NCBI GenBank assembly: GCA_965222075.1
Contig: OZ244937.1
Coordinates: 2,496,001-2,560,000, forward strand
Reading direction: 5' to 3'
DNA length: 64,000 bases
Source of the DNA: Candidatus Latescibacterota bacterium
Lineage (GTDB): Bacteria > Latescibacterota > UBA2968 > GCA-2709665
This document shows positions 4,853-44,671 of the stretch, in pieces (within the stretch, counting starts at the first letter, position 1; each line of letters begins with the position of its first letter). Under the pieces are notes generated by a model, which was given only the letters and a program-made list of their open reading frames with translations, did not search any database and was not told the DNA's origin. The translations under genes were made by a program, and so were the position numbers.

Positions 4853-8118
<3,266 letters not shown>

Positions 8119-8129
<11 letters not shown>

Positions 8130-10551
8130 ATCCACCATCCAGTTCTTCTTTTGCTGATGCCCGCCAGTCCGCAATACGCACCAGTGCCTCCAGCAAAGCA
8201 AGCCGGAAAGGGCCGTACTGGGAAAGCAAGTGGCGCGTACGCTCGGTCCAACTCGCGCCTGTTTCCGGATGCTCCCCCAACTCCATCACGGATAGTGCGA
8301 GCGGCCCGCCGGACCAGGTTTCCCCATCGCCCAAGTCAACCGGCGGTACCTCATCACCCTCCCACACACCGCGTGCAAAACGGCGGCTACCATCTTCCAT
8401 TGCCGGCCTTTCGGCCGGAAGCGGACGCAAGTTCAGACGCACCTTGCCGTGATGGGCGGCGATCAGGTACGCAACCAGATCCGCCTCACGCACCCAGTCC
8501 GCTTGTGAGAGGATCGCGAGCGCAGACGCCAGCTCGTGCCGGAAATACGCACGTCCTTTCGTCCGGTCGTATTTCGGAGCCTTGGCTAACAACCCCTTCG
8601 GTCTTGAATCGGCCTCCAGATTACTCGCAACCATCCGTGCCTGAAATTCAGGGTGTGCCTTGCCGAGGTCGTGCCAGTACGCTGCCCGCACAATCGCTGC
8701 TTTCCAAGCTTCACAAACGCCGAGGCCATCGCACAGGTGACCAGCTTCAAAAGCCACGTGATCCAGATGGTCCGTCAGGCCCACGAACCCTCCCTGCTCG
8801 CTGTCAGAATCGGCGTCGTTCGACTCGTCTGCTGCCTGTGAGGGCAACTTCGCCGACTCCACGGGCTCGACTGCTGCTTTAATTGTCTGATCGAATCCCG
8901 TTTCCGGCGCGTACCCTCCGGCATTCGCATGAACCAACAATACCAAGCCCGGCCAAGGTGCCTCGCTGAACTCGGTCCAAGCAGGGACCCTGCCCTTACT
9001 TTCAGCTCGTGCCTGCGGGTCTATACGAAACACCCGCTGTCCTTCCTTTTTTCTTACATTCTCAAGCCAATTGCGCGCGCGCCCAATCGGAACCGCACAA
9101 AGCTCGTCCCGCATCGGCGCGGGCTGATCCTCCAGTCCAGTCGAAACGTCGAAATTGCGCCAGAAAACGCGAATATCGGTATCCTCGGCATCGCGGATGT
9201 AGGGAGCGACATCGACATCAAAACCGGTCAAATCTGGATCGGTGTCGTATAGGTCCAGCATATCCCTAGATCGCATCACCCACTGATGGGCGCAATCGTC
9301 GACTGCCGGCGGCACGAGATTGGACGGCCGGGCGTCCGTCAACACAGCAATCCGCTCGCGCCCGATTTTGAGCTCGTCAATCTCATAAGGAGCGGCCAGC
9401 GAATCATCGAGATCGCCACCGCTGAGATCAATCCAGCGGATCCTCCCGCCGCCGGAATCGTTCAATTCTCCGTAGCGGTTCACCCGACCAAACCGCTGGA
9501 CGAGGGACGAGGCGGGCGCGAGTTCGGTGAGCATGACCGCCGCCGAAAGATCGACACCCGCTTCAATCGCCTGCGTCGCAACGACAATCAAGTCTTTCAC
9601 TTCCCCAGGCTCCGGCAGCTTGTCCATCTGCGCTTTGCGGTCTTTGGGCCGAAAGCGCGAGTGAATGAGGGCGAGGCGGGTGGGCGGAATATCCTTTTTC
9701 TGGAGTTCCTTATGCACAGCTTGAGCGCGGGCGACGGTATTGACCACCACGAGCGTCGTGCGGTTCCCTTGGTGCAGATGCAGAGTTTCCTCCGCCAACG
9801 CCGTGGCGTAGGCATCCAGATCGTCTTTCTTGTCGCTCACAGGTGCGACGGGTGTCTGTTGAATCGGCTTGGGCGCGTCAATCAGCTTGCGGACATGCGG
9901 CGATTGCGCGTCTTCGGGGAAATCGTCTGGAACGCGCCAAACTGTCGGACTTTGCTGGAAATCAACCGTGCATAGCCAGTCTGGATGAAGGGTCGCCGAC
10001 ACCCAGAGACTGCGCGAGGCAATCTCCGTCCCCAATTTGCGGCGAAAGCCTTCAAGTTGTGTGGAGGTCGCCAGTCCCGAGCCCATGAGTTGCACCTCGT
10101 CAAAGACCCACTGCGCGTCGTTGTGCAGCAACGCGAAGTCCACCGGCCAGCGGAAGCGGCTCATGGCGTACCCCCGCATCAGGGCGCGACTGAGCAGCAT
10201 GTCTTGTGTCCCAATCAGGATGGCCGGATGCTCGGGGTTTTCAAACCAGCGCGGTTCGTCAATGCCCCCCATCAGGACATGGACTCCGGTTTCGGGATCC
10301 GGCAGGCGCGATTTCCAGTGCATATCTGCTTCGCCCAGCCGTCGCAGCCATTCTCTGACATTCCGCTCCGTCTGGTCAACGAGTGTGCGCATCGGCAGGC
10401 AATAGACGAGGCGACGTGGATCGTATGGCGTCAACATCCGGTAAGTGGCCGAGGCGCCCATTATCCGTTTGAGTTTGGCCATCGAAGGAGTGAGTCCAGT
10501 GTTCTCGCCATCACTCTCCAAAGGCTGCTTCGTGTCGTTGTCGGAGTTCAC
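8119..10551 (-). CDS. cas3: Cas3 (helicase plus C-terminal HD), N-terminally truncated/chimeric, lacks Walker A
   Basis: PRRLVYCLPMRTL, GTQDMLLSRAL, DEVQ, SAT, ATQAIEAGVD, QRFGRVNR; HD motifs HDLGK, RHE, HHG, ADWRAS. No TGxGKT upstream. Likely GTG start at 10551 after an AGGAG RBS. Confidence 0.85.
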
Positions 10552-29624: not shown

Positions 29625-30530
29625 CTACAGTACGATCTTATCCAGAACCATCATCACCCAGAGGGTAGGCAAATAAACCAGTGTGGCTCGCAACAGGCGT
29701 CTGGCATCATGCTCGGTTCGGTACCTGGCAAAAGAAAAACTAAACCGCAGCAGCCCCAGGCCCAGCACAACCGCCGCAATAAAATAAACCGTCCCACTTA
29801 CCCACACCAGGGCGGGCAGCAGACTAAAAGGTAAAAGAACCAGGCTGTAGAGAACGACCTGTTGTGAGATGCGATCCCCCCCGGAGTCCTCCACCGAAAT
29901 CATCCGGTGTCCCCCCCGCACATAGTCCTCCCGATAAATCCAGGCAATGGAGAAAAAATGGGGAAACTGCCAGAGGAACATAATCGCAAACAGCACCCAC
30001 GCCTCGGCCCCGACTTCTCCCCGCGCGGCTGCCCACCCGCCAACCGGCGGCAGCGCCCCTGCAATAGCTCCCACGGCCGTGTTGTGCGCCGTTTTCTGTT
30101 TGAGCGGCGTGTACAGGAAAAGATAGATCCCCGACGTCAACCCCGCCAGAATGCCGGCCAGCCAGTTGACCACCATCCCCAGATAAAGAATCCCCAGCGC
30201 CGAAAGCAACAGCCCAAAAACATAGGCCTCCTCCGGCTGCAGCCGCCCCGCTGGCAACGGCCGGTTCTTCGTTCGTCTCATCCGAGCGTCTAAGTCCCGT
30301 TCGAGAAACTGGTTCAGCACCGCCGCCCCGCCAGCGATCACCAGCGTAGCCAGGACCGTATGCAACAACCGGGCAAGATCAAGTGAACCGGTGGCCCCCA
30401 GGACGAATCCCACCGCCGTGCTCAACGCGACAAACAGGGTAATCCGGGGTTTGGTCAAGGCCATATAGTCCGACACCCGTGTCCAGGTGAGGGACAAATT
30501 CGCTTCCCCGATGTCGGCCTGCGGCTTCAT
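29625..30530 (-). CDS. ctaB: Heme O synthase (protoheme IX farnesyltransferase)
   Basis: LTKPRI, NQFLERDLDARMRRTKNRPLP, WQFPHF. Confidence 0.96.
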   Translation of the reverse strand: MKPQADIGEANLSLTWTRVSDYMALTKPRITLFVALSTAVGFVLGATGSLDLARLLHTVLATLVIAGGAAVLNQFLERDLDARMRRTKNRPLPAGRLQPEEAYVFGLLLSALGILYLGMVVNWLAGILAGLTSGIYLFLYTPLKQKTAHNTAVGAIAGALPPVGGWAAARGEVGAEAWVLFAIMFLWQFPHFFSIAWIYREDYVRGGHRMISVEDSGGDRISQQVVLYSLVLLPFSLLPALVWVSGTVYFIAAVVLGLGLLRFSFSFARYRTEHDARRLLRATLVYLPTLWVMMVLDKIVL

Positions 30531-31573
30531 AAAGCAGGTTCTCCGGAAAGGCGAGACGGAACGTGAACGCCCGCACCTTTGGGTGCGGTCATCCGCCAGC
30601 TTCGCAGGGTCAAAACCAGGCTCAATGCCAGAATAGACGCCCCTACAACCACGTGGAACGTCGTCACGGAAACCCTTTTCTCCGTCCAGATCACCAGCGC
30701 CCCCAAAACAATCTGCAGGCTGACCAGCCCCAGCATCAAAAGCGCGGGACGGACGAGTTCCCCTCGACCCTGGTATAGCCGTAGAATGTGTACCGCCGCC
30801 CACACCACTGCGACCAGCACGACCACGGCCCAGGCTCGATGGGCAAAATGGATGAGCACACGGGTTCGAAACGTCTCGGGAGAAATGGGAAAAGGCACGT
30901 TTGGATCAACCGACAGAGAAGAAAGGGGTGGAACGAGATGACCGAAAGAAAGGGGGAAATCGGGAATGGCCAGCCCCGCTTCCGTATGCCGCATCAGGGC
31001 ACCCAGAACAAGCTGTACGTAGATCACGCCCGTGGTGATCACGGCCAGCCCTTTCAGTGGAATCCCACCCCTTTCGACCAGAAGCATCGAAGGTTGCCGC
31101 CAGCGGGGGGACGTGAACAGGGCAATCCCAACGATAAGACAAAAAAAGGTCTGAGCCAAACACGCATGGGCCACCGAAATCGGGGTCGGCAGGAGGTAAA
31201 GCACCGTGATCCCTCCCAGCACCCCCTGCAGCACAACAGCGACAAAGGCCGCAATGCCCAAGTACCGCAGCCACCGCCGAGGCTCCTGCTTCCAGAGCCA
31301 GATGGCCAGAACCGTCGTCAAAAAACCGACGAAAGTGGCGACCATCCGGTGGCCGTGCTCGTAGAAGATGCCGCCTATCATCGGCGGGAAAATCATCCCG
31401 TAAGACAGCGGCCAGTCCGGCACTGCCAGCCCCGAACCCGTGCTGGTCACCAGCCCCCCCGCAAAAATTAAAAAGAGGGTCGCCCCCGCCGTAAACACCG
31501 CAAACCGGTGCAGCCAGCGATCCCCCCCCGTCATCTCAACCGGGTGTCCCTGCATCCTGCTAACGCTCTGCAT
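30527..31573 (-). CDS. ctaA: Heme A synthase (COX15/CtaA family)
   Basis: SGLAVPDWP, YEHGHR, LQGVLGGITV, HFAHR. Confidence 0.92.
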   Translation of the reverse strand: MQSVSRMQGHPVEMTGGDRWLHRFAVFTAGATLFLIFAGGLVTSTGSGLAVPDWPLSYGMIFPPMIGGIFYEHGHRMVATFVGFLTTVLAIWLWKQEPRRWLRYLGIAAFVAVVLQGVLGGITVLYLLPTPISVAHACLAQTFFCLIVGIALFTSPRWRQPSMLLVERGGIPLKGLAVITTGVIYVQLVLGALMRHTEAGLAIPDFPLSFGHLVPPLSSLSVDPNVPFPISPETFRTRVLIHFAHRAWAVVVLVAVVWAAVHILRLYQGRGELVRPALLMLGLVSLQIVLGALVIWTEKRVSVTTFHVVVGASILALSLVLTLRSWRMTAPKGAGVHVPSRLSGEPAL

Positions 31574-31625
31574 CTGCCACAAGGTGCTTTCCGTTATTTC
31601 GGGGGAACGCAACCTGGAAATGCGC

Positions 31626-33200: not shown

Positions 33201-35018
33201 TCAGTCATCCGCGGGTATGGGTGCCAACTCGGCGGCAGCCCCTTCCTCCGGCACATATTGCGGCGAGAAATCCGTTGAACTCCCGGACACGCTGTACTCA
33301 TAAGGCCCACGGTAAACTTTTGGTGTTTCAAGAAAGTTCCCGTGCGGCGGCGGTGTGGGCGTCGCCCACTCTAAGGTCGTGGCCTCCCACGGGTTGTCCG
33401 ACGCCACCTGCTCACCCTTCTTCAGGCTCCAGATAAAATTGATGATGAAAAATATCTGCGCCAGCCCCAGCAGCCAGGCCGACCAGGAACTCATCACCGT
33501 GAGCCCCTGAACCTGCTCCCCGTAAGCGTACTGCGTCTGGTCGTAAAGCCGCCTGGAGACCCCGGCCATTCCCACGAAGAGCATTGGAAAGAAGACACCG
33601 TTCATAAAGATCAGGGAAAACCAGAAGTGGAGCTTACCCAGCGTTTTATTCATCATCCGTCCCGTGATTTTCGGGTACCAGTAGTAGATCCCCGCAAACA
33701 GGGCAAAGATCGTGCCTGGCGCCACCACGTAGTGAAAGTGACTGATCACATAGTAGGTATCGTGCAGGTGCAAATCCGATGTGGTCAGCCCCAGGGGCAG
33801 CCCGGTCAGCCCGCCGATGGCAAACATCGGAATAAACGCCAGGGCAAAAAGCATCGGCACCGTAAACCGCATGGACGCCCTATATAAGCTGAGGGCCAGC
33901 GCGGTCAGAATAACCACCGAAGGGATCGAAATAATCATCGTGGTGGCCTGGAAAAAGTTGCTCATCACGGTCCCCATCCCCGTCATAAACATGTGATGAG
34001 CCCACACGACGAAGGACATGAACCCTAAGAAGATCAGCGAATAGACCATCGTCCGGTAGCCCCACAGCGGCCTGCGGGTATTGTTGCAGAGGACCTCGGT
34101 CACAATGCCCATAGCCGGCAGAATCAGCACGTAGACCTCCGGGTGCGCCAAAAACCAGAAGAGGTGCTGCCAGAGCAAAGGGTTGCCCCCGCCGCTCACC
34201 TCCAGCGGCTGACCCGTAATCACCAGCCCGCTGGGCAGAAAGAAACTGGTTCCTGCCAGACGGTCCATCAGCTGAAGCACACCGGCGGCCTCTAAGGGTG
34301 GAAACGCCAGCAGCAGCAGGAAGGCCGTCACAAACTGCGCCCAGACGAAAAACGGCAGCCTGAAAAAGGACAGTCCCTCGACCCTCAACTGGACCGTTGT
34401 CACAATAAAATTGAGGGAACCCAGCAGCGAGGAAGTAATCAGAAAGATCATCCCCCAAAGCCACATGGTCTGCCCCATCGGCGCAATATTGGCAAGCGGA
34501 GTGTACGACGTCCACCCCGACTGGGCCGCTCCTTCGGGCACGAAAAAGCTGACGATCATCACGATCCCACCCGCCACAAAGGCCCAGTAGCTCGCCATAT
34601 TGATCTTGGGAAACGCCATATCCGGAGCGCCGATCTGAAGCGGCAGCACGTAGTTTCCAAATCCGCCCACCGCCAGGGGAACGACCCCCATAAAGACCAT
34701 AATGGTCCCGTGCATCGCCCCAAGCTGGTTGTAGAACTCCGGCAACATCTTCCCTTCCGGCATGGTGGATTCACTGAAAAGCGCGCCGATCAACGGCAGC
34801 GCCTGGCCCGGATAGGCGAGCTGCCACCGCATCATCATCATCAGGCAGAACCCGAAAAAGAGAAAGACCAGCGCGGTGAGGGCATACTGGATGCCGATCA
34901 CCTTGTGATCGGTGGAAAAAAAGTACTTCTGCCAGAATCCCAGTTCCTCGTGAGCGTGCTCCCCGCCGTGGGCGTGCGCCTCGTCCGTCTGTTTTTCCCG
35001 CTCAACGTGTTCACTCAT
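33201..35018 (-). CDS. ctaD: Cytochrome c oxidase subunit I (A1 type)
   Basis: TDHKVIG, MHG, PDMAFP, WFLAHPEVY, WAHHM, HDTYYVISHFHY. Confidence 0.98.
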   Translation of the reverse strand: MSEHVEREKQTDEAHAHGGEHAHEELGFWQKYFFSTDHKVIGIQYALTALVFLFFGFCLMMMMRWQLAYPGQALPLIGALFSESTMPEGKMLPEFYNQLGAMHGTIMVFMGVVPLAVGGFGNYVLPLQIGAPDMAFPKINMASYWAFVAGGIVMIVSFFVPEGAAQSGWTSYTPLANIAPMGQTMWLWGMIFLITSSLLGSLNFIVTTVQLRVEGLSFFRLPFFVWAQFVTAFLLLLAFPPLEAAGVLQLMDRLAGTSFFLPSGLVITGQPLEVSGGGNPLLWQHLFWFLAHPEVYVLILPAMGIVTEVLCNNTRRPLWGYRTMVYSLIFLGFMSFVVWAHHMFMTGMGTVMSNFFQATTMIISIPSVVILTALALSLYRASMRFTVPMLFALAFIPMFAIGGLTGLPLGLTTSDLHLHDTYYVISHFHYVVAPGTIFALFAGIYYWYPKITGRMMNKTLGKLHFWFSLIFMNGVFFPMLFVGMAGVSRRLYDQTQYAYGEQVQGLTVMSSWSAWLLGLAQIFFIINFIWSLKKGEQVASDNPWEATTLEWATPTPPPHGNFLETPKVYRGPYEYSVSGSSTDFSPQYVPEEGAAAELAPIPADD

Positions 35019-35028
35019 AGGAAACTCC

Positions 35029-35838
35029 TCAGAATGAAAATTCGTCCTCCTCTTCTTCGACCTGCTGCTCATTCAGCCAGGCCTCGAGCGCTTCGGGTGT
35101 CTGGATGTGCACCTGGCCCCGCATCCGGAAATGGCCCAACCCGCAAAGCTGCGCGCAGGCCAGGTCGAACGTGCCCGTCCTGGTGGCCTCAAACCAGAAC
35201 CGGATTTCCGTCCCCGGGATCGCGTCCTGGGTCAGGCGCAGCACCGGGACCTTGAAACTGTGGATCACGTCCTTGGAAGAGAGGCGAATGATGACCGGTC
35301 TGTTCACAGGAATATGCAGGTTATTAATAGAATTGATGTCGTCCTTCGCATTGGGATCGTTCGGGTCCAGGCCCAGCAGGTTATCGCTTCTCACAAACTC
35401 GGGGGCGGTCCGGCCGTAGACCCCATCCTTTCCCGGATAGTGAATGTTCCACGCAAACTGTTCAGGCACCACCCGCACCACAAAAGCATCCGCATCGGAC
35501 GGAAAATCGTGCTTGAATGCCGACCAGGCAGGTATGGAAATCCCGATCAAAAGAACCGCTTCTACAATCACAATGCCGATTTCCACGTACTTGGAGGTCG
35601 TTCCTTTGACATCCTCATAGGTAGCCCTCGGGTTGGCCCCCTGCCGAAAACGGATCAAACAATAAAAAAAATAAATTCCCCAGCCCACAAACAGCGCAAT
35701 CATAAACCAGTGGATCCAGTTGATCAGGAAATCGACAACGTGTCCATGGGTCGAGACATCCATCGGAAGCCAGTATCCGTAAACCTTTTCTTTCATAATG
35801 AGCAGCCCTCCCGCATTAGAGGCACCAATACCTATCAC
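35029..35838 (-). CDS. ctaC: Cytochrome c oxidase subunit II (CuA)
   Basis: Two TM helices; DVIHSF and CAQLCGLGHFRM CuA ligands; no fused cytochrome c. Confidence 0.96.
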   Translation of the reverse strand: MIGIGASNAGGLLIMKEKVYGYWLPMDVSTHGHVVDFLINWIHWFMIALFVGWGIYFFYCLIRFRQGANPRATYEDVKGTTSKYVEIGIVIVEAVLLIGISIPAWSAFKHDFPSDADAFVVRVVPEQFAWNIHYPGKDGVYGRTAPEFVRSDNLLGLDPNDPNAKDDINSINNLHIPVNRPVIIRLSSKDVIHSFKVPVLRLTQDAIPGTEIRFWFEATRTGTFDLACAQLCGLGHFRMRGQVHIQTPEALEAWLNEQQVEEEEDEFSF

Positions 35839-36578
35839 GGCTTCTTCTTTTTCTTAGGTATCTGGAACGTGAAATCAATCGCCGCAGACTCCCCATCCTT
35901 CACCGCCACCTCCTGGGTCTGAGAACCCAGTCTCTCGTGCCAGACCTCAATGGTATAAGTCCCGGCAGGCAGATCCTTCAACGCAAACGTCCCCCCATCG
36001 CCGGTCACATTGAAGAAGGGATGGTCCATCACCCCGATGTATGCCTGCATCCAGGGATGCACATCGCACTTGACCGGGATCATTATCTCCGTCTTGTCGA
36101 AGGTCTTGGTCATCTGCTTCCTGAACTTCGGCATGGCCTGGTTGAACTCGGTATTGACCTTCGGCTTGGGATGGATATTGTGCAGTGTGCCGTCGCTGTT
36201 CAAAATCTTGATCGGCTGGCCGGCCCGGACACCGAACACATGGGGCTTGTACATACATCCGTTCTGATCCAGAACAACCGGCTCTGTCGGCACGTCAAAT
36301 TTCTTGCCCTCCAGTCCCGTCTTGACATACACAAAGACATTGTGCAACGCCCCGTCGTCGTCCACCACCACCACCTCACTGAGCGCGGGGGCCTCGGTGT
36401 GTTTGCCCGCACAAACCGGGTCGGCGGCCATCTGGAGCTTCTTGCGTCCGGGCTTTTTCCCCCCGGGCAACTCCAGTTTAACCGTGCCCGCAACCGTAGC
36501 CCCTGCCATCGCCTCGGCCGCAACAAAACAGAAGAAACAAAAAGCCAGAAACGATGAACACAACCTTCGCCGAGTCAT
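35835..36578 (-). CDS. Exported cupredoxin-like / carboxypeptidase-regulatory-like domain protein
   Basis: Signal peptide; LDQNGCMYKPH, LHNIH, KCDVHPWM. Confidence 0.75.
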   Translation of the reverse strand: MTRRRLCSSFLAFCFFCFVAAEAMAGATVAGTVKLELPGGKKPGRKKLQMAADPVCAGKHTEAPALSEVVVVDDDGALHNVFVYVKTGLEGKKFDVPTEPVVLDQNGCMYKPHVFGVRAGQPIKILNSDGTLHNIHPKPKVNTEFNQAMPKFRKQMTKTFDKTEIMIPVKCDVHPWMQAYIGVMDHPFFNVTGDGGTFALKDLPAGTYTIEVWHERLGSQTQEVAVKDGESAAIDFTFQIPKKKKKP

Positions 36579-36652
36579 TGATCCTCTCCTTATAGATAAA
36601 GTGTTCAAAATTCTCCACACACATCCGATGAATCGAAAAGTTCCAGCCGCAT

Positions 36653-40906: not shown

Positions 40907-41692
40907 CTACATCGGCCCGGAAATTCCGCCGTCTTTTCGGACCCGCCAGAAGTGAAGGCCCATCAGGGCGGCCGCTACGAACGGAATGGCCAGACAGTGC
41001 AGCACATAGAAGCGCAAAAGGGCTCCCTCGCCCACAAACCTTCCCCCCAAAAGCGCAAACCGCGCATCGTTCCCTGCGTGGACCAGGCTAATATCCCCCA
41101 ATTTCAACAACGCCGCACCCGGCCCCTCGTGGCCTAAGAAAGGGGTCGCCCGCGCCATATTCGACCCAACCGTAATCGCCCAGATGGCGAGCTGGTCCCA
41201 GGGCAGCAGATAGCCTGTAAAGCTCAGCAGCAGCGTCAGCAGCAGAAGGATAACGCCGATCGCCCAGTTGAACTCCCGGGGGGGCTTGTAAGCCCCGGTC
41301 ATAAACACCCGGAGCATGTGCAGCCACACCGTGATCACCATCGCATGGGCACCCCACCGGTGGATCTCCCGCATAATTCCCAGGGGCACCTGCTCGCCCA
41401 GATCGATCATATCGGTATAAGCATACTCTAAGGTGGGACGGTAATAAAACATCAGCAGAATGCCCGTGATCGTCTCCACAAGGAAAATAAAAAAGGTAAG
41501 CCCACCCATACACCAGGTGTAGCGCACCCGGATGCCCGACTTGGGCGTCCGGACCGGATGCAGGTGCAGGAAAACGTTGGTCAGCACCACCTGCGCGCGG
41601 CCCCGTTCCTCCCTTGGAATATCGTGGCGGAAAATCGACTTCCAGATCTGCGAACGTTTCACCTGGTCCATCAGGCCAGATCTTTTTGGCAT
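40907..41692 (-). CDS. Cytochrome b6-like N-terminal subunit
   Basis: WCMGG (heme ci-type Cys), HRWGAH...[19 protein letters not shown]...LHF. Confidence 0.93.
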
Positions 41693-41744: not shown

Positions 41745-42521
41745 TCAGATCTTGAGAAACGATTCCGGATTCTCCCACTGCCCCTTCTCGTACTGGTACT
41801 TATACGTCTTATCCACCATCACCTGCCCGTCGTCGGCCAGCACAATACGCGCCCGTTCCAGAGGCCGGGGCGCGGGGCCTTCAAAGTTGATCCCCGTAGA
41901 ATAGAACCCGCTCCCGTGACAGGGGCACTTGAACTTCCCCTCGTTGGCCAGCCAGTTCGGCGTGCACCCCAGGTGGGTGCAGACCGAAATCAGGGCAAAC
42001 ATCCCCTCTGTATTCTTAATGATCCAGATACTGAACTTATCCTTCCACCGTTCGTCCACCCCCAGATCGTACTCATCCGGAGTTCCGATCTTGAACGACT
42101 GGGGCGGCTCAAAAAGAACGTTTGGAAACATGAACCGTCCGGTTGCCGCCAGCCCTGCTGCGGCCGCCGAGGCGAACGCCACCCACGCCAGCGTCAGCCA
42201 GGACAAAAACCCCCGCCGGGTCGTGATCCCCCCCTCCGAAACCGGAACCGTCCTGGGAGGTCCGGGCCGGATCGTTGGCGGTGCGGGTGTCCTCTGGAGG
42301 ATCACCTCTCGCTCGACGGCGCCTTCCTCCTTTTTGGCGGTAAGCGCGCGAGCCGCAGCCGCCCGGTCGGCCGTTGTCGCAGCCTTCTTGGCCTGCGCCT
42401 TCTTCGCAGGCGCAGGCCCCACCCCGCCCTTCGCCTTTCGCATGGCCTCCGCCTTGGCCTTGGCCCGAGCCACACGGTCTGGAATATCGTCAAATTCCGA
42501 AAGATCGACGTTCTCTTCCAT
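41745..42521 (-). CDS. Rieske [2Fe-2S] protein with long N-terminal extension
   Basis: CTHLGC and CPCHGS, GPAPRPL; Tat-like TRRGFL motif and TM helix after about 100 residues. Confidence 0.95.
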
Positions 42522-42608
42522 AGATAAATCACTCCCGGAATATCAGCTGCCTGGAGGTAAAAAACACCGCCGTAGTAGAAAAATTAGCCTGATTTGAAAA
42601 CTTTGGCC

Positions 42609-42637
42609 AATATATCGAAACAAGCTCATATTGTCAA
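42609..42637 (-). promoter_or_regulatory. sigma70 promoter of the Rieske/cytochrome b/oxidase cluster
   Basis: TTGACA-17-TATATT. Confidence 0.7.
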
Positions 42638-42716
42638 GCTCGGATTTTGGACCTTTCAGGCTCCTTTTTAAAGATTGCTGGAAAGACCACGCACGACCGA
42701 CCGCAGACGGACGCCC

Positions 42717-43652
42717 TTACTCCCTCCACGCCTTCAGGACCTCGATGGCCGCCTGACGGACCTGCATATCAGGATCTACTCCCCGAAGATCCCGAAGCGT
42801 GGGCGCCATAGACCGGGCATCTAAGAGTTTCACCGCCCGGATCGCCTCTACCATAACATCCCGACGGCGCTCCCCGCTCATCTGCTTGAGCGTCTCCAGG
42901 TACTGGCGGTTCAACATCTCACTCAGAACATCCAACCCGGCGTCATTCCCGGCCCCCGCAAGCTGCAGGGCCGCATTCCAGCGAACGTCGGGCACCCGGT
43001 CCCGTAGCGCAGCCTCCAGCACGGGCCGTACACGGGAATCCTTCAACTGCCCCAGGGCGTAAACCGCCGCCTTTCGAATCCCGGCGTCGTCGCTGGAGGC
43101 CAGCGCAATCAGAGAAGGCACGGCCCGGGCGTCCCCCTGCGCGCCCAGGGAGAACGCCGCATAAATCCGGGTCTCGTCATCCGGATCGTCCAGCGCAGAG
43201 ATCAAAACAGGTACAACCGCAGGGTCCTTGACCATTTTCATCGCAAGCGCGAGATAACGCCGCACCTGGGGGTCGTCGGAACGGGAGGCCTCAAAAACCC
43301 GGATCATCTCCCCGACAAATTTTGGGCGCACCCGCCCCTGGCGCTGCTCTTCGGCCAGCACCTTGGAAAGTTCGTACGCCGCCTGCCACCGGCTGTTGAT
43401 CCCGCCGACCCGAATCGTATCGAGATAGTCCTCCGCCGTCTTGTCCTCTGCCGTCAAAAGTCCCAACAGCAGATAAATCGCCACGCCGACAATCACAATC
43501 GTCAGCGGAAAAACCACAAACTGTCCGATCAGCCGCGACCTGGGCACATCCTGCTCTTTGATCGGAGCGGTCGCTTCCTCCACGATCTGCCTGAGCTCCT
43601 CCGGTGCCGATGTCTGGCCGTCTGTAGGAGGAACTTTCTCTCCTTCAGGCAC
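42717..43652 (-). CDS. Membrane-anchored HEAT-repeat protein
   Basis: One TM helix, then HEAT repeats (VPVLISALDDPDDETRIYAAFSLG, VRWNAALQLA). Confidence 0.88.
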   Translation of the reverse strand: MPEGEKVPPTDGQTSAPEELRQIVEEATAPIKEQDVPRSRLIGQFVVFPLTIVIVGVAIYLLLGLLTAEDKTAEDYLDTIRVGGINSRWQAAYELSKVLAEEQRQGRVRPKFVGEMIRVFEASRSDDPQVRRYLALAMKMVKDPAVVPVLISALDDPDDETRIYAAFSLGAQGDARAVPSLIALASSDDAGIRKAAVYALGQLKDSRVRPVLEAALRDRVPDVRWNAALQLAGAGNDAGLDVLSEMLNRQYLETLKQMSGERRRDVMVEAIRAVKLLDARSMAPTLRDLRGVDPDMQVRQAAIEVLKAWRE

Positions 43653-43858
43653 GTAGCGACTCCCTTTGATAACCTATCCCACAAGCGGGTGTATGAATGT
43701 CAATAATGTAAACCAAATCATAAGCCCTGTCAAGAAATTGATGACACGATAATAAGAAAAAATGATTTCTTACATTAAGGGATATTCGGCGTCCACACCC
43801 TTCCGGCCGCGGGATATCAGCGGTTGTTCCCCGATACCATAAACAGGAGAGTTCTCCC

Positions 43859-43887
43859 TTGACAAGTCCGACAAAAGGCCGTATTTT
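43859..43887 (+). promoter_or_regulatory. sigma70 promoter of the ferredoxin gene
   Basis: TTGACA-17-TATTTT, upstream of an AGGAGG RBS. Confidence 0.65.
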
Positions 43888-43933
43888 ATGTCTTGGTCTA
43901 TCAATTTATTGGTTCTCTCCAGGAGGGCACAAG

Positions 43934-44671
43934 GTGGCCGAAGTCGATCTCTCCCAGTTTGACGGGATCTCAGACCGGGTTGCCCGCGCCAGGGCCAAAT
44001 CCGAGGCGATGCGCAAGGCAAAAGCGGGTGGGGGTGAAAGCGCCTCTGCTGCACCTGAAGCAGCCGTTGCGGAGGGGGCGCAGGGGGATGGAGGGGATGC
44101 CGTTGAAAAAGAGGCCCCGGGCCTCCCCATTCTCGAATTCAACCCCGGCATCCACTTCAAATGGAAAGGTCGGGCGGGCAGAACCATCGGCATCCGCTAC
44201 GACCTCGTCAGCTTTGTCTACGATGACGATCCCGACCAGGTCGTCACCGCCGACCGGTACCGGCTCAGCCATGCCCATGCGGAGGGAGACCTCGAATTTG
44301 CCCCCAAAGCCGAGGTCTATCGCCCCGACCGGGCCGGCAAGAGCGACCGGGTCGACTACCACGACTACCTGTGGCTCGACACCCGAAAGGGCATGACCGC
44401 GAAGAAAAGGCGCCCCAAGATTCTTGCCATCATCAACCCGGACTACTGTACCGGCTGCAACGCCTGCATCGAAGTCTGTCCTACCGACTGCATTGAAGAG
44501 GTCGATGTGGCCGACGCGGGTCTGGACGGTCTTGGCCACTTTTGCGAAGTCCGGCTCGAAGACTGTATCGGGTGCAAACAGTGCGTGCCGATGTGTCCCT
44601 GGGAGGCCATCGACATGTTCGACACCCAGCAGGTTGAAGAGGCCTACGGCATTCCGGTGGGAACCCTATAG
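43934..44671 (+). CDS. 2x[4Fe-4S] dicluster protein whose N-terminal module is shared with the Rieske protein
   Basis: GTG start after AGGAGG; CTGCNACIEVCP and CIGCKQCVPMCP; no signal peptide. Confidence 0.9.
   Translation: MAEVDLSQFDGISDRVARARAKSEAMRKAKAGGGESASAAPEAAVAEGAQGDGGDAVEKEAPGLPILEFNPGIHFKWKGRAGRTIGIRYDLVSFVYDDDPDQVVTADRYRLSHAHAEGDLEFAPKAEVYRPDRAGKSDRVDYHDYLWLDTRKGMTAKKRRPKILAIINPDYCTGCNACIEVCPTDCIEEVDVADAGLDGLGHFCEVRLEDCIGCKQCVPMCPWEAIDMFDTQQVEEAYGIPVGTL

Follow-up and report, generated by a model that had tools for sequence, protein, structure and literature searches.

The window analysed here is a stretch of 64,000 nucleotides from Candidatus Latescibacterota bacterium (contig OZ244937.1), and it contains an operon for a Rieske/cytochrome b complex next to a gene for a ferredoxin-like protein (Table 1). 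The Rieske and ferredoxin genes are divergent and lie 1.4 kb apart, and the haem-copper oxidase genes (COX2, COX1, CtaA, and a UbiA-type CtaB) continue the same cluster. The start of the ferredoxin gene is most likely the GTG, which stands 7 bases behind the GGAGGG of its putative ribosome binding site; the TTG at 43859 is probably not the start. The HEAT-repeat protein, a conceivable receptor, accompanies a Rieske protein that has no module in another genome (G048), and its charge pattern is compatible with either side of the membrane.

Table 1. Features of the Rieske/cytochrome b operon and of the divergent ferredoxin-like gene (positions in the window).
Feature	Positions	Strand	Remarks
Multihaem cytochrome c subunit, 1026 aa	36653..39733	-	Pfam scan
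Subunit IV-like protein (cytochrome b C-terminal part), 358 aa	39755..40831	-	PF00032
Cytochrome b6-like subunit, 261 aa	40907..41692	-	PF00033 + PF13631
Rieske [2Fe-2S] subunit gene, 258 aa	41745..42521	-	PF00355
Rieske hydrophobic anchor, residues 109-127	42141..42197	-	Highest Kyte-Doolittle window
Rieske twin-arginine motif T-R-R-G-F-L	42204..42221	-	Invariant in 14/14 and 18/18 aligned orthologues
Rieske cytoplasmic N-terminal extension (predicted), residues 1-98	42228..42521	-	In order: module, Gly/Ala/Pro/Lys linker, Ala/Arg helix, Pro-rich stretch
Rieske N-terminal module, residues 5-31	42429..42509	-	Short helix, turn, basic Ala-rich helix
HEAT-repeat protein, one N-terminal membrane helix	42717..43652	-	First gene of the operon, between both module genes
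Ferredoxin-like gene, 245 aa, GTG 43934	43934..44671	+	Shine-Dalgarno GGAGGG at 43921-43926
Ferredoxin N-terminal module, residues 4-30	43943..44023	+	Modelled helix 15-31, pLDDT 71-76
Gly/Ala/Glu linker, acidic, variable, residues 31-62	44024..44119	+	Net charge -6; column entropy 2.0 bits
Conserved small beta-barrel, residues 63-131	44120..44326	+	SH3/Tudor/KOW-like in model
Basic connector, residues 132-165	44327..44428	+	Net charge +5
2x[4Fe-4S] ferredoxin domain	44429..44668	+	Two C-x2-C-x2-C-x3-C-P motifs; net charge -14

The Rieske protein possesses a [2Fe-2S] domain (PF00355, E 1.3e-7), and every aligned sequence keeps its C-T-H-L-G-C and C-P-C-H-G-S boxes. Among NCBIfam families the b6f iron-sulfur subunit matches it best, with a score of 70.5 bits that falls short of the equivalog cut-off (250). 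Cytochrome b is split across two ORFs, one b6-like and one subunit IV-like, and cytochromes b6 are the best matches among solved structures (E 2.4e-40). The earlier note had pointed to a haem ci-type cysteine in this protein, and Cys61 (41510-41512) does align with the F-Y-C-L-G-G cysteine of a solved b6 (chain 7r0w_I), the residue that binds haem ci/cn there. Cys61 is a candidate ligand, with the attachment predicted from this alignment. With a haem-copper oxidase downstream, the cluster looks like one for plain aerobic oxidation of quinol, to which a cytoplasmic iron-sulfur partner has been added.

Rieske proteins have a cytoplasmic N-terminus and are anchored by an uncleaved Tat signal. The Tat motif read earlier is present here and is followed by the hydrophobic anchor, and because the module precedes this motif it should lie on the cytoplasmic side. 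The remainder of the extension includes a second conserved helix, rich in Ala and Arg, at about residues 46-62, while the Pro-rich stretch comes immediately ahead of the Tat motif.

The ferredoxin-like protein is built, in order, from the module, an acidic linker, a small barrel that is SH3-like in the model, a basic connector, and a 2x[4Fe-4S] domain (PF00037 at E 6e-14, PF12838, and PF14697) in which all eight Cys are invariant in 18/18 sequences. In line with the earlier claim that it has no signal peptide, there is no hydrophobic segment, and the top 19-residue Kyte-Doolittle mean is 1.0. The AF2 model of the whole protein is poor (mean pLDDT 49.6, with the Fe-S domain unfolded), and the barrel reaches a pLDDT of 76-84. 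The best fold matches to the barrel fall in the range expected for a common fold (TnsB, Z 7.3, rmsd 2.2 over 61 residues; FeoA, 6.7; CarD and Tudor, 6.5), and no sequence family matched it.

Translation at the coordinates in Table 1 reproduces both module peptides exactly, and the module sits at the extreme N-terminus of both proteins; the Rieske protein starts M-E-E-N and its module follows from residue 5. A recount by script returned the 22/27 identical residues given in the earlier note (61/81 bases at the DNA level) and also its figure of different synonymous codons at 12 of the 22 identical residues, the same codon being used at 10/22. Directly behind the module, both proteins have the Gly/Ala/Pro-rich stretch that the note had described. 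When the full-length proteins are compared using BLASTP, 24/31 residues are aligned, with an E value of 2e-11 for the pair. The acidic/hydrophobic first half, D-L-x-x-F/L-D/N-x-I-x-D, is invariant, as are the small residues of the helix, which carries a charge of +5 over 17 residues, has a hydrophobic moment of 0.12-0.26 (i.e., it is not amphipathic), and has a negative mean hydrophobicity.

The match is specific. A profile built from the two modules and run against 96,718 six-frame ORFs from the whole 5.36 Mb genome recovers only the Rieske protein and the ferredoxin (E 2e-18 and 7e-18), with the next-best ORF at E 0.65, and a motif pattern of 13 positions picks out these same 2/96,718 ORFs and has 0 matches in 5 shuffles. 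Since both genome-wide searches find these two proteins only, the resemblance between them exceeds chance. Across 1,835,955,588 representative proteins, only 30 match the module at E <= 0.001. The earlier note did not recognise the module as a named domain, and the family databases likewise returned no match over it, neither Pfam (E <= 0.01 to 5) nor NCBIfam (E <= 0.01), in scans that took in the window proteins, the third family described below, the NuoI/NuoC carriers, and 23 NuoI-type units. A search of a limited literature collection found no paper on the module or on a ferredoxin that serves as a subunit in a complex of this kind.

Within the Latescibacterota, the module is present in 30/168 genomes, always on both neighbours, and each of these genomes has 2-3 matches, all of them on the Rieske protein or the divergent gene beside it; the carriers were sequence-checked in 30/30 genomes. 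These genomes represent three related families, so that the co-occurrence counts are not independent and may reflect a single gain. The note had considered that the module might be a generic tail scattered over unrelated proteins, and this is not what is seen: the profile finds no unrelated proteins in the genome, and the orthologues retain the tag. Rieske proteins carry one or two copies (two in tandem in 18/24), and proteins with the module and the barrel carry 1-3. Five further genomes contain Rieske relatives that lack the module (catalytic domain 42-62% identical), and the barrel and connector were not found in 5/5. The unit of inheritance is the whole operon, module included.

In the third family (f3), the same locus encodes two proteins, one with two modules, the barrel, and two membrane helices, the other a small ferredoxin on its own; the latter has no module, and the membrane-anchored barrel protein retains 2-3. 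Comparison of the fused form with this split form using hhalign gave a probability of 99.5 (E 1.4e-22). A homologue search with the barrel region recovered 42 close relatives (60-100% identical), all of them the same ferredoxin, and missed the third family. One genome (G079) has a second Rieske/b6 operon that contains a related small ferredoxin gene. Matches from outside the phylum (Planctomycetota, Myxococcota, Rhodobacter, and others) were set aside as they cover the generic Fe-S domain only, and none of the seven such loci that were examined (L066-L069, L072, L104, and L111) has Rieske/cytochrome b neighbours.

The module is under strong purifying selection and the linkers vary freely. The module has a column entropy of 0.42-0.43 bits and the catalytic domains one of 0.31-0.37, as against values of 2.0 and 1.14 for the linkers. 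The earlier proposal of selection at the protein level rather than a recent DNA copy holds up: dN/dS in the orthologue sets is 0.066-0.089, synonymous sites between paralogous module copies are saturated (pS 0.74-0.80), and module identity within a genome (19.75/27) equals that between genomes (19.65/27). Neither the synonymous saturation nor the comparison of identities gives any sign of gene conversion between the copies.

A related motif is found on other respiratory proteins. Among 48 complex-I-like loci, 17 carry it on NuoI and 11 on NuoC, in each case on an extension borne by a linker and never on both subunits; it is also found on membrane-anchored SRPBCC/Coq10-like proteins. The module and the NuoI/NuoC motif align using hhalign with a probability of 96.4 (E 1.1e-9), a similarity that is not an independent test of homology because the motif set was gathered with a pattern derived from the module. 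These carriers are known from marine metagenome loci, and five genomes reached via other loci contained no match to the NuoI, NuoC, or SRPBCC versions. The Pfam gene order at one locus (L183) is nuoA,B,C,D,H,I,J,K,L,M,N, with nuoEFG absent; its NuoC protein scores 132.8 bits against TIGR01961 (NuoC_fam; cut-off 122.45), and the NuoI protein P0024 matches TIGR01971 at E 6.8e-17, below the family cut-off. There are up to 4 motif copies per carrier, and on NuoI they are arranged in tandem at the C-terminus. Several carriers possess neither Fe-S motifs nor Tat signals, namely the barrel proteins with membrane helices P0005, P0007, P0019, P0021, L128, and L129, NuoC, and the SRPBCC proteins. All motif carriers belong to quinone-linked respiration and would face the cytoplasm.

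On NuoI, a four-helix unit is modelled with confidence (pLDDT 90.3), and the module makes up its helices 1-2; on this model, the 27-residue module is half of a bundle that a partner could complete. A suspected likeness to the PCP_red-like helical domain found no support in Pfam or fold searches: PCP_red gave 0 matches in Pfam (E up to 10 for 23 NuoI-type units, up to 1 for 13 carriers), and no PCP_red chain is among the fold matches listed for the NuoI unit. The best of the fold matches (Z 6.1, rmsd 3.1, 62 residues) is at noise level for helical bundles. Foldseek returned nothing for the unit at E <= 0.001, and a protein atlas search with the NuoI extension gave no usable match.

Our preferred reading, to which we assign a probability of roughly one half, is that the module is a portable, tethered docking unit by which the ferredoxin is kept on the cytoplasmic (n) side of the Rieske/cytochrome b complex. 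The 27 residues would form a small helix-turn-helix interaction module on flexible, fast-evolving linkers, carried on the one side by the cytoplasmic N-terminus of the Rieske subunit, ahead of its Tat anchor, and on the other by a dedicated accessory protein in which the module is followed by the acidic linker, the SH3-like barrel, and an acidic 2x[4Fe-4S] domain. The ferredoxin could be retained at the n-side if the two half-sized helical hairpins pair, or if both bind one shared assembly site, and either arrangement would place a low-potential iron-sulfur carrier near haem bH/ci and the quinone-reduction side. The evidence for docking is genomic: the two carriers strictly co-occur, the module is built like a peptide on a tether, and other respiratory subunits bear the same motif. 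From it we infer that the tagged proteins bind each other or a common partner; electrons may pass between the ferredoxin domain and the complex. Complex predictions for the ferredoxin (245 aa) with Rieske residues 1-98 and two 4Fe-4S clusters scored 0.52, 0.49, and 0.53, the level of a control with an unrelated first chain (0.50), and so weigh neither in favour of binding nor against it. As the small ferredoxin of the third family has no module, the module is not the sole localiser of the Fe-S domain there.

It is possible, if on the unlikely side, that each module instead captures the same third, soluble cytoplasmic partner (e.g., an acidic ferredoxin or a dehydrogenase) much as a fishing line would, raising its local concentration, and that the motif on NuoI or NuoC does the same for a complex I without an NADH-oxidising module. 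The carriers include proteins that already sit in the membrane (the Rieske protein, the barrel with membrane helices, and SRPBCC proteins) and the copy number goes up to 4, as would suit the capture of a soluble protein, and since the anchored barrel protein of the third family needs no tether yet has modules, capture of another partner fits it equally well. NuoI and NuoC adjoin the place where the electron-input module of complex I docks, and both their location and the operon without nuoEFG favour such capture, as does a basic helix that complements the acidic surfaces typical of ferredoxins. PMC11238625 states that the electron donor of the 11-subunit complex I is still to be settled and that a platform on which several donors dock was proposed. 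The genome encodes the alpha subunit of a 2-oxoacid:acceptor oxidoreductase above cut-off (634.8 bits), and no RnfC or long PFOR in it reaches its cut-off, so that a route for re-oxidising ferredoxin would be useful. However, the Latescibacterota module is strictly tied to a module-bearing, ferredoxin-like neighbour, and the simpler view is that the two belong together.

Binding to a polyanion or to the membrane surface, in which the basic Ala/Lys/Arg helix would hold acidic lipid head groups or nucleic acid and do no more than keep its carriers at the membrane or nucleoid, is improbable. The charge of the helix and the Lys/Ala-rich Rieske linker would suit it, but the low hydrophobic moment and negative mean hydrophobicity would not, three kinds of carrier are already anchored in the membrane, and the invariant first half and small helix residues suggest a specific fold or interface rather than bulk charge. 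The modelled NuoI version, moreover, would pack the module inside a four-helix unit.

More improbable still is a maturation or targeting tag, an epitope for chaperones of Tat proofreading or iron-sulfur cluster delivery. Some N-terminal peptides of Tat-related redox enzymes bind maturation chaperones, both proteins in the window are Fe-S proteins, and the Rieske module stands ahead of a Tat motif; yet the membrane-helix barrel, NuoC, and SRPBCC carriers have the module without Fe-S motifs or Tat signals, the small Fe-S ferredoxin of the third family does without it, and tandem copies at the C-terminus of NuoI are unlike a signal peptide. Finally, a functionless low-complexity tail kept alike by gene conversion is hardly credible, for though the genes are close neighbours and the helix is rich in Ala and Lys, the pS and dN/dS values and the equal identities contradict it and the adjacent linkers drift freely.

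There are several known systems that the reader should keep in mind when considering tethered docking. The peripheral-subunit-binding domain of 2-oxoacid dehydrogenase E2 is helical, about 30-35 residues long, flanked by flexible Ala/Pro/charged linkers, and docks subunits; the module resembles it as a small helical unit, single or repeated, set off from a catalytic body by linkers, and differs in that no Pfam scan matched it and that it serves a membrane respiratory complex rather than a soluble multienzyme core. Docking domains of polyketide synthases and NRPS are short terminal helical tags, portable and thought to pair into small bundles. The module is likewise a terminal helical tag on partner proteins and portable between carriers, but its sequence is unrelated, both partners bear the same type of tag, and pairing would have to be inferred. 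The conserved N-terminal peptide on Fe-S/redox proteins, beside or replacing a Tat signal, recalls the remnant Tat peptides of maturation chaperone systems, which differ from a module found on carriers with neither feature, at C-termini, and in tandem.

In cyanobacterial/chloroplast NDH-1, the SH3-like NdhS with NdhV/NdhO beside NdhI, and in photosystem I, PsaE/PsaD, use a barrel and basic surfaces to position acidic ferredoxin on the cytoplasmic or stromal side of a quinone-linked complex. A small barrel, SH3-like in the model, and a related motif on NuoI/NuoC of operons without NuoEFG recall these systems, whereas the barrel here is fused to a ferredoxin domain or to membrane helices. There was no NdhS profile match at E <= 0.01, and NdhS is absent among the 50 fold matches listed for the barrel. 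With b6f the complex shares a split cytochrome b, a Cys aligned with the haem ci Cys, a Rieske subunit, and a genetically coupled ferredoxin-type protein. It differs in being respiratory and non-photosynthetic, with a multihaem cytochrome c of 1026 aa and, downstream, a haem-copper oxidase, in having a dedicated fusion protein as its ferredoxin, and in having no small b6f subunits and no FNR. For cytochrome b6f with haem ci/cn, a ferredoxin:plastoquinone reductase route in cyclic electron flow is debated (e.g., bioRxiv 10.1101/2020.08.22.262592).

One may go further and suppose an undescribed, portable respiratory docking motif with which bacteria hang low-potential carriers on the cytoplasmic side of quinone-converting complexes, the Rieske/b6 complex being ferredoxin-linked with ferredoxin-to-quinone input at the n-side, and NuoI or NuoC docking a donor; we regard this wider proposal as doubtful. 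If it is true, the Latescibacterota complex would give bacteria an equivalent of the ferredoxin:plastoquinone reductase activity long debated for b6f, and the NuoI/NuoC motif would supply the docking device so far missing for the electron donor of the 11-subunit complex I. Both n-side ferredoxin input into a b6-type complex with haem ci and the donor of a complex I without the NADH module could then be tested with defined parts, and the linker-borne tag on the Rieske protein, the ferredoxin, NuoI/NuoC, and the Coq10-like proteins offers a concrete experimental handle. Should the tag merely stabilise assembly, it would still be a new small domain family for annotation, and the module would mark an accessory subunit of Rieske/cytochrome b complexes that had so far escaped notice.

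The 27-residue unit that the Rieske protein shares with the divergently encoded ferredoxin-like protein is most likely a tethered interaction module, since it is a small conserved fold carried on a drifting linker in variable copy number, is portable between N- and C-termini and among carriers, and is confined to the cytoplasm-facing parts of quinone-linked respiratory proteins. Known linker-borne docking domains include those of E2, PKS, and NdhS-type systems. The module is like E2 peripheral-subunit-binding domains and PKS docking domains in being a linker-borne docking unit and can be likened to NdhS-type ferredoxin docking on NDH-1, although no profile matches it to any of the three.

Both peptides lie where the earlier note had placed them, and its counts of 22 identical residues in 27, 12 of these 22 with different synonymous codons, were reproduced by script; the module DNA is identical at 61 of 81 bases. 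Whole-protein BLASTP between the two proteins gives only the module stretch as significant (24/31 residues, E 2e-11). The profile search of the genome proposed in that note recovers only the Rieske and ferredoxin proteins: the genome, a single contig of 5.36 Mb, gives 96,718 ORFs in six frames, among which a two-module profile scores these two at E 2e-18 and 7e-18, with the next best at 0.65. They are also the only matches of a 13-position pattern, which has none in five shuffles. Because both scans match two proteins only, the module can be regarded as real and specific, and not as a generic tail. The ferredoxin start is most likely the GTG listed in the table; a TTG at 43859, which comes from a mechanical listing of frames, is unlikely to be the true start, and the orthologues of the module genes start at the same place as those of the window.

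Features of the window and of related loci (window positions unless a locus, contig or residue range is named)
Feature	Position	Strand	Remarks
Rieske gene	41745-42521	minus	258 aa; start codon four residues ahead of module
Rieske module	42429-42509	minus	
HEAT/PBS-lyase-like repeat protein	42717-43652	minus	single N-terminal membrane helix
Ferredoxin-like gene	GTG 43934 (most likely start)	plus	245 aa; GGAGGG upstream; start three residues ahead of module
Ferredoxin module	43943-44023 (residues 4-30)	plus	
Ferredoxin acidic variable linker	residues 31-62		charge -6
Ferredoxin conserved domain	residues 63-131		
Ferredoxin basic connector	residues 132-165		charge +5
Ferredoxin 2x[4Fe-4S] domain	residues 166-245		charge -14
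CarboxypepD_reg-like to UbiA-type stretch	33201-36620 and 29625-31612	minus	CtaA and UbiA-type further on
Two complex-I-type loci, genome of the window	G000:C1:363692-367210 and 728494-731764		
2x[4Fe-4S] gene, second Rieske/b6 operon of G079	L130 (G079:C69:8000-22000), 8397-8654	plus	86 aa
Module-less Rieske frame of G048	L124 (G048:C2:1990000-2006000), 8792-10015	minus	N-terminal extension ~235 residues
Rieske frame of G008	L038 (G008:C5), 7065-7445	minus	gene in two frames

Conservation was assessed in the locus from 23 relatives plus the window (n=24). Every Rieske protein and every ferredoxin in this set (24 of each) bears the module, and 18 of the Rieske proteins carry two tandem copies split by a variable acidic/Ala/Pro linker. 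Nine columns are invariant among the 43 copies, whose consensus is [VIL]-D-L-[ST]-x-F-D-x-I-x-D-R-V-A-R-A-[KR]-A-K-[AS]-E-A-x-R-K-A. Module columns have an entropy of 0.42-0.43 bits and those of the catalytic domains 0.31-0.37 bits; the linkers are more variable (ferredoxin 2.0 bits, Rieske 1.14 bits). Pooled Nei-Gojobori dN/dS, approximate because dS is near 1, is 0.066 for the ferredoxin module and 0.075 and 0.089 for Rieske copies 1 and 2, and synonymous sites are saturated between paralogous copies of one genome (pS 0.74-0.80). The protein-level selection claimed earlier is thus borne out; the docking that the note proposes is inferred. Rieske-ferredoxin module identity is equal within and between genomes (19.75/27 and 19.65/27), giving no sign of gene conversion between module copies. 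In one relative (G008), ambiguous bases (X in translation) follow the second module of a Rieske gene that falls into two frames; the gene is probably not broken but interrupted by a gap in the assembly.

The minus-strand genes run in the order HEAT-repeat protein, Rieske, cytochrome b6-like, subunit IV-like, and a 1026-aa multihaem cytochrome c, followed by a CarboxypepD_reg-like protein, COX2, COX1, CtaA, and a UbiA-type prenyltransferase. Together they form an aerobic quinol-to-oxygen cluster, which resembles a combined bc-type/haem-copper oxidase cluster. The closest solved relatives of the b6-like protein are cytochromes b6 (E 2.4e-40), and the haem ci-type Cys noted previously on cytochrome b is Cys61, which aligns with the haem ci/cn-binding Cys of b6. 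The HEAT-repeat gene is the first of the operon in every module-bearing locus inspected.

An AF2 model of the ferredoxin (16 sequences) is poor overall (mean pLDDT 49.6), but residues 15-31 form a helix in it (pLDDT 71-76) and residues 65-122 a beta domain (pLDDT 76-84). The latter resembles SH3/Tudor/KOW-type barrels at the level of a common fold only (best Z 7.3, rmsd 2.2 over 61 residues). One family of module-bearing genomes (f3; G077 and G079) has two genes at the divergent position, one for a protein that combines two modules and a degenerate third helix with the barrel and a C-terminal pair of membrane helices, the other for a module-less ferredoxin of ~105 aa corresponding to the window protein's C-terminal half; the Rieske protein of this family has one module. 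G079 also has a second Rieske/b6 operon, in which an 86-aa gene lies between the subunit IV and multihaem genes; its product shares 41% identity with the window ferredoxin's Fe-S domain. Two independent gene arrangements thus tie the ferredoxin domain to Rieske/b6 operons.

The module occurs in 30 of 168 genomes of the phylum, with two to three matches each on opposite strands a little over 1 kb apart; inspection of the sequences places it, in all 30, on the Rieske protein and the divergently encoded protein next to it (locus L058 and the G085 match are the same contig). Rieske catalytic domains of this clade are found in 35 of the 168, five extra genomes having module-less versions. Four of these loci (G048, G049, G050, and G071, not G073) were inspected as 16-kb stretches, and none contains a ferredoxin orthologue; the ferredoxin barrel and connector were not found in any of the five genomes, which are 96-99% complete. 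Module and barrel/ferredoxin are therefore together in 30/30 genomes and both missing in 5/5, which may reflect very few evolutionary events because the genomes are kin. In G049 and G050 the module-less gene is in another gene context, and G071 has no HEAT gene. In G048 the HEAT gene is present downstream, 3' of the multihaem gene, and the long Rieske extension has another helical repeat, 40 residues long and present twice on Ala/Pro linkers, with sub-threshold Pfam matches only (Ribosomal_S3_C 22.6 bits, Rho_N 13.9 bits).

A profile of the 43 copies was searched against 1,835,955,588 representative proteins, yielding 30 at E <= 0.001 (17 at E <= 1e-10), which were sorted by inspection and Pfam. 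There are 16 Rieske- or ferredoxin-type proteins or fragments, five module-barrel-membrane proteins (P0004, P0005, P0007, P0019, and P0021), five NuoI-like 2x[4Fe-4S] proteins with related repeats in long C-terminal extensions, two membrane-anchored SRPBCC proteins, one unassigned fragment, and one spurious repeat protein. The module-barrel-membrane family matches the fused ferredoxin across module and barrel (profile-profile probability 99.5, E 1.4e-22). The SRPBCC proteins (P0028 and P0032; Polyketide_cyc2/Polyketide_cyc, Coq10-type family) bear three to four C-terminal repeats of the variant seen at the NuoC N-terminus.

Among 2,283 ORFs of 80 marine metagenome loci with NuoI-like relatives (L134-L213), the motif occurs 69 times in 42 ORFs, every one NuoI- or NuoC-like (0 in 20 shuffles). 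It lies in NuoI C-terminal extensions of 200-480 residues as one to four units of ~60 residues, or alternatively as an N-terminal motif of ~75 residues on NuoC; the 48 loci with both frames have it on NuoI only (17), NuoC only (11), neither (20), or both (0). One such operon (L183) reads nuoA,B,C,D,H,I,J,K,L,M,N without nuoEFG, then an NqrA gene. An hhalign comparison of the Latescibacterota module with these motifs (probability 96.4, E 1.1e-9, 29 columns) shows likeness and is no independent test, as the motifs were picked with a module-derived pattern. The 64-aa NuoI unit is modelled confidently as four helices (pLDDT 90.3, pTM 0.78), the module being helices 1-2. Fold searches with this unit gave no outstanding solved structure: the best Z was 6.1, and Foldseek had no match at E <= 0.001. 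In the window's own genome, one complex-I-type locus has a 611-aa NuoC-containing frame adjoining a NuoF-like gene (544.8 bits, just below cut-off) and the other a short NuoC frame; the profile scan found no module on either.

In the simplest reading, the tags of the window would hold a dedicated, putative ferredoxin-like partner at the cytoplasmic face (n-side) of the Rieske/b6 complex. Pairing of the two module hairpins with each other is an attractive mechanism, since the 27-mer corresponds to two of the four helices of the NuoI unit. Binding of both modules to a shared receptor would fit nearly as well, as would capture of a third soluble partner, which is favoured by the retention of several tags on membrane-anchored carriers. 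A maturation tag is at odds with carriers that have neither Fe-S clusters nor Tat signals, and simple insertion into the membrane with a helix that is very basic and non-amphipathic.

The genome encodes a 2-oxoacid:acceptor oxidoreductase above its cut-off, with no RnfC or long PFOR reaching theirs; on these circumstantial grounds, it would be physiologically plausible for reduced ferredoxin to have a route into the respiratory chain. The module is covered by no Pfam or NCBIfam model, in keeping with the earlier failure to recognise it as a named domain, and a literature search found no published description. Judged from sequence, the locus would add an undescribed small motif family and a putative, hitherto unnoticed ferredoxin-type accessory of the Rieske/b6 complex.
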